This document shows, piece after piece, positions 59,861 to 64,000 of a DNA stretch of 64,000 bases (position 1 is the stretch's first letter; each line of letters begins with the position of its first letter). The notes under the pieces were generated by a model. It did no database searches and was not told the origin of the DNA. It saw only the letters and a list, made by a program, of their open reading frames with translations. Source of the DNA: Parcubacteria group bacterium (GTDB taxonomy: Bacteria; Patescibacteriota; Minisyncoccia; Moranbacterales; UBA2206); contig JBAZUU010000003.1 in assembly GCA_041661275.1 (NCBI GenBank), positions 92,833 through 156,832 on the forward strand. Direction: 5' to 3'. A program made the translations under genes and the position numbers.

Positions 59861-60286
59861 ATGAAAATTGACGTTAAAAAATTAAATAAGGGAGTTTTGG
59901 AACGGGGCATAAGGCTTGTTGTTTTATTTGGTTCTCAAGCCGAAAAAAAAGCCCGCAGTGATAGCGACTATGACATTGCTGTTTTAACAACAAACAAAAA
60001 AAATATAAAAGAACTTGATAATTATAATAATGCTCTGTTTTTTTTATGTGAAGCTTTGAATATTCCGGATTATAAAATGGACTTGACTAATTTAAACGAT
60101 GCCAGTCCTTTTTTGATGAACGAAATAACCAGATCTAGCCGGCTTATATTTGGAGATGGGGATGATTTTGCTGCTTTCAAAGCTAACGCGATGCGGGAAT
60201 ATATTGCTACGCGCGGCCTCAGGGAGTTGGAAGAAAAACTTATAATCAAGCGTCAAAAAATATTGGCGGAAAAAATTTATGCTTAG
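59861..60286 (+). CDS. MntA-type nucleotidyltransferase (antitoxin-like)
   Basis: VLFGSQAEKKARSDSDYDIAV, a GSx10DxD nucleotidyltransferase motif. Confidence 0.65.
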   Translation: MKIDVKKLNKGVLERGIRLVVLFGSQAEKKARSDSDYDIAVLTTNKKNIKELDNYNNALFFLCEALNIPDYKMDLTNLNDASPFLMNEITRSSRLIFGDGDDFAAFKANAMREYIATRGLRELEEKLIIKRQKILAEKIYA

Positions 60287-60740
60287 AAAGGATTTTATTA
60301 AAAAGAAAATAAGCCTTATTCAGGAAGAGCTTGGCAGACTGGTGGTTTTTAAGGATTTTACTCTCGAAGAAATCGCTGGAGATTTTTTCAAATATAATAC
60401 TCTCGAACGGTTGCTGGAAAAAATTATTATACGAGCTATAGATATAAATCAGCATATTATCGGAGAATTAGCTGACGAGAAAACCAAAGCTCCGGACAGC
60501 TATCGGGATACTTTTACGGAAATTACAAAATTTGAAGTTTATCCGAAAGAGTTTGGGGAAAAGATATCGCAAAGTGTGGGGACTAGAAATGTATTGGTTC
60601 ATGACTATGATGACGATGAAACTGATTATAAAAAAATTTATTATTCAGTAGGCGACTGTCTGAAGGAATATCATAAATATTGCGAATACATTTTGGAATT
60701 TTTGGAGAAAGGAAAAGCATCCGAAACCCGCCTTGTTTAA
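60279..60740 (+). CDS. HepT-like (DUF86) toxin
   Basis: RNVLVHDY matches the Rx4HxY motif. The start overlaps the upstream gene by 8 nt. Confidence 0.7.
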   Translation: MLRKDFIKKKISLIQEELGRLVVFKDFTLEEIAGDFFKYNTLERLLEKIIIRAIDINQHIIGELADEKTKAPDSYRDTFTEITKFEVYPKEFGEKISQSVGTRNVLVHDYDDDETDYKKIYYSVGDCLKEYHKYCEYILEFLEKGKASETRLV

Positions 60741-60819
60741 AATAGAAAAATCAAGAATTCAGCTCGTTTTGCTGTTTCGACACTCAATTTTAGATAGTGC
60801 AGTGAAAATTAATGAATAA

Positions 60820-60845
60820 AATGGCTTGTTATAGCCATTTTTTGT
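60820..60845 (+). terminator. hairpin terminator after hepT
   Basis: aaaatggcttgttatagccatttttt. Confidence 0.6.
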
Positions 60846-60971
60846 AACCAACCTTTACAAAAGTCGTTTTTGGGTGTATAATCACATATTCTTTCCAGCG
60901 CGGAGAGAATCTCTGACCTCGGGACGAGGGGTAAAAAAATTGGGCGAACGAGCCTAAAAAAGGAGACGAGT

Positions 60972-61895
60972 ATGGGTGATGTAAGAGAGGTTCTTGAAAA
61001 ACTGCAGGACTTGGATGCGGGAAAGCTGCTTGCATTAGTCGATGCTTTCCCTGGACAAAGAGCAGGACTGGATGCAGTTCTGCGTGGAGAAGAGCGAATT
61101 ATTCTCGAAAAAATAATTCGCAAACTCCTTGATAAAAGCGGACGCTGTATTCCCGCGCACCTTGGTATCACAGCCAGTGTGTGTGACGAGAACCGCGGTT
61201 TCCATGTCGAGCTTCCCAAGCTCAGCTACGCGGAAATTCGCGAGCGGACTGCCGGTTTTTTCCCGGGTACGGAAGTTGCTTCGGCGAATAAATTTGTAGA
61301 TGTAGCCGAAGTGCTTAGAGCGAAGTATGATAGCCACGAATTGGTGGGCAATTTCTTTCAGCGCGCTCGGCCGATTGTTCTGCCGAAGTGTGATGCGCGG
61401 GAAAACTACGGCTCATTAATGCAGAATTTCATCCTGCCGGCGGTGGAGCGGGCTTATAAGGACCAGTTTCCCAAGCGAAAATTCACAAATTACCGCAAAG
61501 GCGAACTGGATGGAAAAATCGCCATCATTTCCGATACCGGCCATGAAGAGTTGGTGTCGCTGATGGCCGAGGAATCAGTTGTCGCCTGGTATTCGCCGAA
61601 CCCGCTTCAGGGATTTTCTATCTTTGCCCAGCGTGAAGCGATGAAAATCCTTATGCGGCATGGAGGATTTGCATTGGCCGGCGGCGTGGACACGGGAACA
61701 GCGGTCGTCGCCTATACTGAAACGATGGCGCGCGATTTCAAAACCCCGGCCTATATCTGCAGCGCTCTTTCGTGGCGGTCCGCCGACGATTCGCTCTGCT
61801 TCGGCGCGGGCGGCGGCGGGTTCGGCTTCGGCGGCGCCGCCGGTCTCGCCGATGCGTACTACGACGGCTCTGGCGGCCTCGTCCTCTTCAGGTAG
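60972..61895 (+). CDS. DGR target (variable) protein; VR encodes the C-terminal about 40 residues
   Basis: 307-aa ORF in a GC-rich block. Its 3' end (61768-61896) is the variable repeat. Upstream are an extended -10 tgtataat at about 60872 and a GGAG RBS. Confidence 0.7.
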   Translation: MGDVREVLEKLQDLDAGKLLALVDAFPGQRAGLDAVLRGEERIILEKIIRKLLDKSGRCIPAHLGITASVCDENRGFHVELPKLSYAEIRERTAGFFPGTEVASANKFVDVAEVLRAKYDSHELVGNFFQRARPIVLPKCDARENYGSLMQNFILPAVERAYKDQFPKRKFTNYRKGELDGKIAIISDTGHEELVSLMAEESVVAWYSPNPLQGFSIFAQREAMKILMRHGGFALAGGVDTGTAVVAYTETMARDFKTPAYICSALSWRSADDSLCFGAGGGGFGFGGAAGLADAYYDGSGGLVLFR

Positions 61896-61896
61896 C
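61768..61896 (+). repeat. DGR variable repeat (VR)
   Basis: It aligns base-for-base with 62259-62387. About 24 of about 25 mismatches are at positions where the other copy has A. Confidence 0.85.
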
Positions 61897-62258
61897 GCGG
61901 GGGATTGTTCTTTGGAATTTTTTCTCTTGGGCCAGGTATTTTGGCTTTTGGTCTTTGGGAAAATGGGAGGCGCGGTGATTTTTCACCCCGCCTCTTTTTA
62001 TTTTTTCAAAAATTTGGTAAACTTATTTTGAGAGTAGGCTAATGCATCTTGATTTACGGATCAAGGTCGCCGAAATTGTATGATTCTTCATAGAGCATCA
62101 GAATCTTGCCGTTGCGACATTCCTGACTTTTCAGATTGCAAGAGCGTATGCGAAGATTTATAGGCGCTACTTATTTCTTTCCAGCGCTCAAAAGGGGCGG
62201 AATAAAATTCAGTCTTGCATAATTTTGCGGGGCAGTGAAACGGGCGGAAAGAAATAAA

Positions 62259-62387
62259 TTTCGTGGCAGTCCGCCGACTATTCGCTCAACTTCAACGCGA
62301 ACGACGACGAGTTCAACTTCGACAACACCGACAATCTCGCCGATGCGAACAACAACAACTCTGGCGGCCTCGTCCTCTTCAGGTAGC
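62259..62387 (+). repeat. DGR template repeat (TR)
   Basis: A-rich copy with four consecutive AAC codons. It shares the 3' 29 bp ctctggcggcctcgtcctcttcaggtagc with the VR. Confidence 0.85.
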
Positions 62388-62397
62388 ACCCAAAAAC

Positions 62398-62425
62398 AAG
62401 AGTCCCGTTTTTCGGGACTCTCATC
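62398..62425. terminator. hairpin after TR / downstream of avd (bidirectional)
   Basis: agagtcccgtttttcgggactct followed by a T-run. Confidence 0.55.
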
Positions 62426-62431
62426 TTTTTG

Positions 62432-62782
62432 CTAATTAAGCGATTTTTGCCATCCGCCGATCATCCGACCTATTTCCTGAATTTGTTTTTGCAACGCCAG
62501 ATATTTTTTGCTGTCCAGCATCTTTATATCATTGCCGAGCCGGATAAAAATTTTCAGCGTATCAAATTTTATATTCGCTTTTCTGATGTACGCGATCTTT
62601 TCCGGTTTTGACGCGCTTCCGGCGGCCAGCAAAAGCTCAAGAGTTTCGATGATATACATTTCGCATTTGCTTCCAAGAGTGTATTTGTCCTTTTTGGGAA
62701 ATAATTTTGAGTAGCTATAAAAACTTTTATATAGCTCATAAACCTTCTTTATAACCGGCAAATTATTATTGTAATCACTCAT
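62432..62782 (-). CDS. avd: DGR accessory variability determinant (Avd-like four-helix-bundle protein)
   Basis: FPKKDKYTLGSK...LLLAAGSA...LDSKKYLALQKQIQEIGRMIGGWQKSL fits the four-helix-bundle/Avd family. The likely start is MSDYNNN at 62782. Confidence 0.65.
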   Translation of the reverse strand: MSDYNNNLPVIKKVYELYKSFYSYSKLFPKKDKYTLGSKCEMYIIETLELLLAAGSASKPEKIAYIRKANIKFDTLKIFIRLGNDIKMLDSKKYLALQKQIQEIGRMIGGWQKSLN

Positions 62783-62786
62783 AAAT

Positions 62787-63882
62787 ATGTACGATAAATT
62801 AGTTAGCTTGGAAAACCTTTTTGTTTCCTGGAAAGAATTCAGGAAAGGAAAACAGAATAAAACTGATGTCCAGTTTTTTGAAAGATTTTTAGAGGATAAC
62901 ATTTTTGCTATCCATGAAGAATTAAAGAATCAATCTTATCGCCATGACAAATACAAAACTTTTTATATTCAAGACCCAAAACCGAGGATTATCAGTAAAG
63001 CAACGGCGAAAGACAGATTTGTCCATCACGTCGTTTCTCGTGAGCTATATGACGTTTTTGATTCTTCTTTTATATTCCATTCCTATTCTTCGAGGGAAGA
63101 AAGAGGAACTCATCTGGCTGTCAAAAATCTTTCAAAGTGTTTGAGACGAACGAGCAGAAATTATACTCGTCCGGCCTATGTTCTAAAATGTGACATCAGA
63201 AAATTCTTTGCCAGCATGGATCATAAAAAACTTCTGGAATTGATCGAGCGCAAAATTTCCGATAAGAACTTTTTGTGGCTGATTGAAGAAATAATCAACA
63301 GTTTTTCTTCAGGAGAAGCCTTGCAATTAGCGGAAAATGCTTGGGGGGGGGGCGTTAAAAGGTGGGAAAATTGGAAAAAAGGGACTTCCGATTGGCAACA
63401 TCACTTCGCAAATTTTTGCTAACATATATCTCAACGAGTTGGATTGGTTCATAAAAAGAAAGTTAAAAGTGAAAAATTATTTTCGCTATGCCGACGATTT
63501 TGTTATAGCCCATTGCGAAATTGGTTATTTGAAAGAAGCTTTGTCGCAAATAGACCATTTTTTGAAGAATAAATTAAAATTAGAGCTTCATCCTAATAAA
63601 GTCGAAATACGAAAATTTAGCCAGGGAATAGATTTTTTAGGATATGTTATCCTTCCTCATTATATAGTGTTGCGAACAAAAACCAAAAGGCGGATGATGA
63701 AAAAACTATCATTGAAACATAAGATGCTCCGAGAAGAGTTGGTTTCCGAAGAATCACTCAATCAAAGCGTTCAGTCGTATTTTGGGATACTAAAGCATTG
63801 CGAAGGGTATGGAATTGAGGGGAAAATATTGAGGTTAAAGAGGCAGAATATGGAACGTAGTTCAGTTTTTTTATTGTTTTGA
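62787..63882 (+). CDS. DGR reverse transcriptase, interrupted by a +1 frame change at a G10 homopolymer
   Basis: The first frame (62787..63422) reads ...IISKATAKDRFVHHVVSREL...CDIRKFFASMDH. The second frame (63337..63882) reads ...GLPIGNITSQIFANIYLNELD...RYADDFVIA. Removing one G rejoins them. Confidence 0.8.
63343..63352 (+). repeat. G10 homopolymer at the RT frame break
   Basis: Direct reading: ttgggggggggggcg. Confidence 0.9.
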
Positions 63883-64000
63883 CACTCATCGCTAATTAGC
63901 GTATTATATATAAGAAATAAGAATAAAAATAAAAAATATTACTCTAATTAAACAGACGTCTAGTAGTGTTTCTTTTTGTGTTTTTATCCCCCACCACCTT

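Follow-up and report, generated by a model that had tools for sequence, protein, structure and literature searches.

A frame-breaking simple-sequence repeat in the reverse transcriptase gene of a Parcubacterial diversity-generating retroelement: a probable switch or throttle of hypermutation

Described systems and the Parcubacterial element

The diversity-generating retroelement (DGR) of the Bordetella phage BPP-1 has the order mtd-avd-TR-brt, with a functional spacer between the template repeat (TR) and brt. Sequence is transferred from its TR to a variable repeat (VR) with changes specific to adenines, the VR lies at the 3′ end of the gene of a protein with a C-type-lectin fold, the 3′ ends of VR and TR are GC-rich and identical, and an accessory variability determinant (Avd) is found together with a reverse transcriptase (RT) bearing the motifs IGxxxSQ and YxDD. 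These features recur in an element of a Parcubacteria bacterium of the Candidate Phyla Radiation (CPR), contained in a 64-kb stretch of contig JBAZUU010000003.1 that is called the window here. The element differs from that of BPP-1 in that avd lies on the opposite strand between TR and RT, 4 nucleotides (nt) from the RT start, and in that a conserved structured RNA is placed 5′ of the TR. It is moreover chromosomal, its target has neither a signal nor a tail-fibre context, and its RT gene carries an out-of-frame repeat tract. This tract, a simple-sequence repeat (SSR), is likely to be a functional switch or throttle of the RT.

Cellular, CPR-restricted DGRs have been surveyed before (clade 2 of Roux et al. 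2021, PMC8144416; the 'CPR set' of Wu et al. 2018, PMC5758913). According to the parts of these surveys available to us, they resemble the window element in having targets mostly devoid of recognisable domains and non-canonical gene orders. Repeat-interrupted or frameshifted RT genes go unmentioned in the searched text of both surveys. As far as that text goes, Wu et al. (PMC5758913) compiled 'putatively functional' DGRs, and split RTs may have been excluded. No publication tying DGR RTs to repeat tracts, phase variation or slippage was found, in a search whose coverage of CPR DGRs was incomplete, and an earlier mention of a split RT is possible. The mechanisms controlling retrohoming await discovery according to a 2024 preprint. 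How a functional protein is spared continual rewriting by its DGR is an open question.

Two further kinds of system resemble the repeat tract rather than the retroelement. Known SSR contingency loci mostly concern surface structures or restriction-modification genes, and the slippage sites of insertion sequence (IS) elements are usually A/T runs or fixed heptamers. The contingency loci of Campylobacter, Neisseria, Haemophilus and Helicobacter carry an intragenic poly-G of 8–11 or a dinucleotide repeat in the cases described in the consulted parts of PMC4965091 and PMC3315296. Length differences between otherwise identical sequences and natural in-frame and out-of-frame alleles are shared as well. 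The present case differs from them in that the gene that would be switched itself drives a second hypermutation system and in that the host is an uncultured CPR bacterium. In the throttling of IS transposases, as given in part of PMC1088944, a potentially harmful enzyme is likewise placed out of frame behind a slippery run and its activity is kept low; here, unlike in IS elements, repeat type and length vary and ON and OFF alleles exist at the DNA level.

The element itself is almost certainly a genuine DGR. VR (61768–61896) and TR (62259–62387), both on the plus strand, form a 129-nt direct repeat of 81% identity, exactly where the original prediction for this stretch had placed them. Direct comparison of the two gives 25 mismatches, 24 of which lie at TR adenines (20 A>G, 3 A>T and 1 A>C; hypergeometric p = 3.3e-18) and one elsewhere. 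All 25 fall at codon position 1 or 2 of the target open reading frame (ORF; 60972–61895). The TR has 32 adenines, and 8 of them are unchanged in the VR. Four AAC codons of the TR (NNNN) read YYDG in the VR, in agreement with the TAC/TAC/GAC/GGC read earlier. The VR comprises the last ~42 codons and the TAG stop of the 307-aa target and ends with the stop of that ORF, much as had been claimed (the last ~40 codons). The predicted Avd-like minus-strand gene, avd (62432–62782, 116 aa), matches PF22296 (bAvd, 5.8e-20). The RT gene (62787–63882, plus strand) contains the expected motifs as IGNITSQ and YADD, and its product is nearer in match E-value to PDB entry 8ub7 (best match, E = 9.5e-38) than to RTs of group II intron or retron type (~1e-16). 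We take 8ub7 to be the Bordetella enzyme. The description of the locus as a complete DGR therefore stands in its identity and falls in its completeness, since the RT is out of frame at a run of ten guanines.

The repeat tract in the reverse transcriptase gene

As assembled, the RT gene occupies two frames and is split into two ORFs (62787–63422 and 63337–63882) that lie one frame apart. The window element thus lacks the intact RT frame of a DGR, with a +1 break at the G10 tract (63343–63352, plus strand). Deletion of one G produces an intact ORF of 364 aa, and either G9 or G12 would be in frame. The 64-kb window contains no further run of G or C of at least 7 and no dinucleotide repeat. Two independent sequencing runs match the window exactly, G10 included; the element is present in three assemblies with G10 in all, so that its own tract shows no difference in length. 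The tract falls within an insertion of 40 aa immediately ahead of the GLPIGN motif; the corresponding stretch of 8ub7 counts 17 residues. In a confident structural model of an in-frame allele, the tract segment has a predicted local distance difference test (pLDDT) score of 57–71, the lowest of any internal segment, with a mean of 87.9 for the model, as expected if the insertion is a permissive and dispensable surface segment.

Related DNA loci and contigs (numbered L001 upwards) were recovered through searches with the target and with the RT. All recovered loci with an insertion before GLPIGN have an SSR there and an RT out of frame, and every tract-free relative has an intact RT. The tract is G10 in the window, L001, L002, L006, L020 and L057, G11 in L029 and L043, G9 in L037 and L041, and an interrupted G7 in L039/40. 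It is replaced by (AG)n in L004, L011, L012, L030–L036, L042 and L049/50. The frame offset is either +1 or +2 according to the locus, so both wrong frames occur. Long in-frame tracts were found as well, G8 in L053 and (AG)15 in L054. Among the 120 protein clusters nearest to the N-terminal half of the RT, those bearing a repeat divide into 64 OFF, cut off right after GGG or RERERE, and 7 ON (p = 4e-6 against the one-third ON expected for a neutral tract). Cluster P0070, which corresponds to the in-frame G8 of contig L053, was not captured by the classifier; counted in, it would raise the ON clusters to eight.

Tract length differs between sequences that are otherwise nearly identical. For instance, L001 and L043 overlap by 8,073 nt with one mismatch and one gap, and the gap is the difference between G10 and G11. 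Similarly, L051 and L052, which come from sister samples, are 99.4% identical over 1,774 nt with a single gap of one AG unit; L051, with (AG)10, encodes an intact RT of 358 aa, and L052, with (AG)11, is out of frame. L030–L035 differ from L036 by 4 nt in the tract. An intragenic SSR, variation of its length and natural ON and OFF alleles, the sequence hallmarks of a contingency locus, are accordingly all present in the clade. A fixed site of programmed frameshifting or slippage is not what the loci display, because repeat type, length and offset all vary.

The RT half downstream of the break has remained under constraint. Between out-of-frame lineages the ratio of nonsynonymous to synonymous substitution rates (dN/dS) in this half is 0.03–0.18 where dS is measurable, and no stop codon occurs in the 450 nt downstream of the break in 10 OFF loci. 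The contigs L030–L036 are seven copies of one sister element from different samples, with the RT out of frame in all seven. Their TRs are identical, and the 377-nt spacer and 900 nt of avd and RT are identical except for single-base differences in two contigs. The same contigs carry seven different VRs, with 35 variable columns of which 32 stand at TR adenines. Diversification is ongoing in this 'OFF' lineage. Either the RT is made by slippage from OFF genes, or in-frame episodes are frequent and short.

These observations can be placed in the following mechanism. An RNA of ~400 nt consisting of a leader, the TR and a terminator hairpin would be transcribed from its own putative promoter. RT and Avd would copy the TR into complementary DNA (cDNA) with misreading of adenines, ~70% of which would end as G, and the cDNA would replace the VR, by which up to 32 positions could be rewritten in the C-type-lectin-like, ligand-binding end of the target. 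The RT would be gated by the hypermutable SSR inside its gene, G10 here and G7–G11 or (AG)n in the relatives. The tract would set the RT out of frame in most genomes, and slippage by one unit would restore the frame, at the DNA level certainly and during transcription possibly. In this way tract length would set the level of RT and the activity of the DGR. Only a minority of cells or transcripts would yield RT, and hypermutation would occur in rare stochastic bursts with a stable VR in most cells.

If this is true, a tract that gates the RT offers a simple answer, for one large clade, to the question of how a working protein is protected: most cells keep their VR and a few gamble. DGR activity would then have its first concrete mechanism of regulation, with one mutator gating another. 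Surveys that require an intact RT ORF will drop such elements or score them as dead, and at least one such lineage is visibly diversifying.

Two side observations concern the surroundings of the tract. TGTGGATAA, the DnaA-box consensus, stands ~8 nt 5′ of the tract in L004, L006, L011, L012, L042 and L051–L054; it is conserved at the DNA level, encodes (P)VDN/K and is absent from the window RT. In L003, a more distant relative with an intact RT of 46% identity and with avd and RT upstream of the target, the intergenic region of avd and RT (L003:1170–1190) contains G9 followed by TCTTAAAAG, which resembles the G10-CGTTAAAAG inside the window RT. This intergenic G9 could be a promoter-located version of the RT tract.

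Explanations of the out-of-frame gene

The fuller reading, in which a clade-wide contingency switch in the RT gene is combined with a permuted DGR RNA (a structured domain of ~225 nt 5′ of the TR that may pair with the TR 3′ end), is one towards which we lean. Several points weigh against the switch or against this RNA. The OFF excess of ~90% means that the ON state is rare or selected against; on a weaker reading, the tracts would be hotspots of mutation, mildly deleterious in effect, that have been caught OFF time and again. The occurrence of G10 in six lineages could fit a fixed 'programmed' state with transcriptional or ribosomal slippage. The VR of the window element is the same in the one independent run that covers it (L055). 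The VR diversity of L030–L036 could predate their present OFF consensus; this is what a switch predicts, and it is no proof of expression from OFF alleles. The helix proposed between the leader and the TR 3′ end depends on a single clean covarying pair and is held with moderate confidence.

Alternatively, the frame break could be programmed recoding in a fixed genome, where slippage of RNA polymerase or a +1 ribosomal shift on GGG-G would supply a constant low level of full-length RT and changes of tract length at the DNA level would be incidental. We regard this as rather unlikely, and it is the strongest of the alternatives. It would account for the same +1 offset of G10 in the six lineages listed above (the window, L001, L002, L006, L020 and L057), for the out-of-frame state of ~90% of the repeat-bearing RT genes, and for the diversification of VRs in a lineage with seven out-of-frame assemblies; transcriptional slippage is likewise used by IS elements, to judge from the available part of PMC1088944. 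It does not readily account for the variability of repeat type (poly-G or AG), of length (G7–G11, about (AG)7 to (AG)15) and of frame, or for natural in-frame alleles one unit away from out-of-frame ones, and no conserved stimulatory element was identified at these loci. Recoding and a contingency switch are nevertheless compatible, as slippage of DNA and of RNA can share one tract.

It is very improbable that a mutational hotspot has turned the RT into a pseudogene, in a DGR that is dead or dying with VR/TR differences as relics. Such decay would agree with the out-of-frame RT of the window as assembled, with the identical VR in both assemblies that cover it, and with the out-of-frame state of most relatives. 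However, the constraint on the downstream half (dN/dS 0.03–0.18, stop-free in 10 out-of-frame loci) is not that of a decaying gene, and the sole lesion is always located at the repeat. The tract is kept rather than lost across lineages that are 55–85% identical, VRs are rewritten in an out-of-frame lineage, and pairs of ON and OFF alleles exist. Decay is largely refuted for the clade.

No more probable is a split enzyme, with each RT half translated as a polypeptide of its own and the two associating to give active RT. Both halves are conserved, and the second frame of the window RT begins with an ATG (63337) shortly before the tract. Yet in 8 of 17 out-of-frame loci the downstream frame offers no start codon (ATG, GTG or TTG) ahead of GLPIGN, the offset between the halves is +1 or +2 depending on the locus, and single-chain in-frame alleles exist. 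An error of sequencing or assembly over an RT gene that is truly in frame is the least probable of all, for homopolymers are error-prone on some platforms but G10 is identical in the window and two independent runs, more than 15 independent assemblies produced by different projects share the break, which is also found at AG dinucleotide repeats that are not homopolymers, and the tract gap is the sole indel in 8 kb between L001 and L043.

Template RNA, target gene and surroundings

The element is ordered as target gene with VR, structured leader and TR, bidirectional terminator, avd on the minus strand, and RT. Transcription of the TR RNA may start from an extended −10-like box, TGGTAAACT (62015–62023, plus strand), judged by its resemblance to the consensus. 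The pattern TGnTAnAnT is present directly after the target terminator in 13 loci, with the forms TGGTATAAT, TGATATAAT and TGTTATAAT in relatives. The ~225 nt between that terminator and the TR are conserved as invariant single-stranded blocks alternating with hairpins whose arms covary, and constitute the leader (62030–62258, plus strand). In the window its predicted helices are P1 (62171–62182 with 62246–62257), which ends one base before the TR, P2 (62186–62189 with 62195–62198) and P3 (62212–62219 with 62226–62233), all on the plus strand.

RNAalifold predicts 24 pairs in the TR-proximal 140 nt, 18 of them with compensatory changes. When an additional proposed helix is included, 92.6% of cells are paired, versus 47–58% in slid controls, and two-sided changes occur at 20 pairs versus 6–11 in the controls; none of 500 shuffles reaches the observed values. 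Wherever a repeat-clade locus has enough upstream DNA the leader is present, and one relative lacking the repeat shows it weakly. Rfam gives no match within 60700–64000 even at E up to 1.

The additional helix would be formed by BoxA of the leader (62161–62170, plus strand) and BoxA′, GTAGCACCCA (62383–62392, plus strand), which covers the 3′ end of the TR and its flank. It is 84.7% paired across the loci, with one clean covarying pair (7 G-C and 5 A-U, none broken) and one partial, and in the window it has 2 mismatches in 10. With moderate confidence, this pairing may close the TR into a loop beside the leader. In function the leader may correspond to the Bordetella spacer RNA, with a position 5′ instead of 3′ of the TR, and would then serve as a platform for RT and Avd. 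It would represent a second, independent solution to template presentation that could be compared with the Bordetella RT-Avd-RNA structures.

A terminator directly after the TR had been predicted, and a terminator-like hairpin is indeed present at 62399–62421. It belongs to a putative bidirectional terminator (62399–62431), AGAGTCCCG-TTTTT-CGGGACTCT, with T-runs on both strands. Hairpins of different sequence occupy the interval between the TR and the convergent avd in relatives too. A 13-nt exact repeat common to the leader and the 5′ untranslated region (UTR) of the target mRNA was considered and set aside; its sequence is unconserved in relatives and probably reflects chance or a lineage-specific event.

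The target gene (60972–61895, plus strand) is preceded by a promoter-like site, TTTACA-17-TATAAT (60854–60882, plus strand), proposed from 11 of 12 matches to the consensus only, and TTGACA...TGTATAAT is its equivalent 5′ of the target genes in relatives. The 5′ UTR that would follow (60883–60971, plus strand) contains a hairpin (60887–60909), two GC hairpins and an AGGAGA Shine-Dalgarno sequence; as judged by eye, conserved blocks and hairpin arms that change together are seen in the window, L001, L002, L004 and L057. At the other end, between the VR stop and the target terminator, lies a non-coding T/G-rich element with five TTGG motifs (61905–61965, plus strand). TTGG occurs 3–5 times per 80 nt at aligned positions in 13 loci, versus a background of 0.55, and the element may be a target-site or 3′-UTR element. 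It is followed by a terminator-like hairpin, GGAGGCGCGGTG...CACCCCGCCTC, with a T-run (61966–62007, plus strand), read from the sequence. A simple terminator scan does not flag this hairpin, whose stem is imperfect; a hairpin and T-run stand at the target end in all relatives, with different stem sequences.

The open frame beyond TAG, together with the TTG that most TRs have at the position of the stop codon, raised the idea that readthrough at the VR stop adds a hydrophobic extension to the C-terminus. It was rejected, as the length of the in-frame extension lies anywhere between 0 and 62 codons across loci, a second stop following at once at the lower limit, and T/G-rich DNA encodes hydrophobic residues in any frame.

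The target protein has no Pfam match. Its C-terminal ~100–130 aa adopt a predicted C-type-lectin/FGE-like fold, with hits to TvpA (2y3c), Mtd (1yu0) and TaqVP (5vf4). Like these variable proteins it combines that fold with a VR at the C-terminus; it differs from them in having no sequence similarity detectable by Pfam and in an N-terminal part of ~180 residues that is unmatched. No signal peptide is apparent by eye in the N-terminal sequence, and the protein is apparently cytoplasmic. The family is tiny, 38 clusters among 5.8 billion, and every cluster with a named source comes from CPR bacteria. Over the last ~40 residues its members keep the scaffold SW-SA-SL-F-A...SGGLV with the intervening positions scrambled.

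Nine target homologues of 34–41% identity (L005, L007–L010 and L013–L016) are located among housekeeping genes, with no RT, Avd or A-biased repeat within ~6 kb. Some of the RT-less homologues are in metagenome-assembled genomes labelled Gammaproteobacteria or Saccharibacteria, which may be mis-binned. An attempt to derive the function of the target from these homologues was abandoned, as their housekeeping neighbours give no clue. Among the contigs of the sister element, L033 and L034 match L030 at 40–49% (ungapped) over the 1 kb upstream of the VR, and all are identical downstream. This mismatch could come from an indel or from recombination with a breakpoint within the target gene.

The genes 5′ of the DGR are hrcA-grpE-dnaK-dnaJ, phoH, frr and rseP. 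Directly 5′ of it, two overlapping ORFs (59861–60740) encode a toxin-antitoxin pair of an MNT nucleotidyltransferase (PF18765) and a HepT-like RNase (PF01934). The original prediction had taken the whole block to be GC-rich and hence of horizontal, phage-like origin. Only the target is GC-rich (54.5%, versus 41% for the 64-kb window), and avd (37%) and RT (35%) are more AT-rich than the flanks; a GC-rich target with AT-rich avd and RT is seen in 6 of 7 loci compared, L012 being the exception. The proposed origin is unsupported, as the upstream genes are chromosomal housekeeping genes and the MNT/HepT pair, and no phage genes were seen in the gene context of the window.

The layout that had been called unusual is real, but it is standard within this CPR clade, and 6 relatives likewise have avd on the minus strand between TR and RT. 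The divergent starts of avd (62782) and RT (ATG at 62787) are 4 nt apart, as had been noted, and across loci the two starts stand back to back at 0–21 nt. Since they do so, the promoter of each gene would lie inside the coding sequence of the other, or the RT would be transcribed by readthrough from the TR promoter across the antisense avd. A promoter-like site on the minus strand is present inside RT (63187–63160).

Further details of the repeat pair bear on how the VR is rewritten. VR and TR share an identical GC-rich 3′ end of 27 nt, a candidate for the IMH and IMH* boundary elements, which is absent elsewhere in the window, and no additional target for the TR was found within the 64 kb. 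At column 253 of alignment A3 (window 62385), 12 of 13 loci have TTG in the TR and the TAG stop in the VR; the window, with TAG in both, is the exception. Since this difference persists, the position would never be transferred and would mark the 3′ limit of homing.

In TR/VR pairs from 28 loci, A>G makes up ~70% of adenine substitutions (228 of 325 for the repeat clade, 85 of 127 for relatives free of it). The excess reflects either a biased misincorporation spectrum of the RT or selection, and leads to glycine-rich VRs, GAGGGGFGFGGAAG of the window among them. A correlation between this bias and the tract was discarded, the figure being 70% in the repeat clade versus 67% in the repeat-free relatives. 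The sole mismatch outside adenines is a T>G change (TR 62279, VR 61788) in a TAT/TAC codon, where the T stands just 5′ of an A. The same change recurs at column 21 of the VR of L035, in the unrelated sister element, which suggests a reproducible neighbour effect of adenine misreading.

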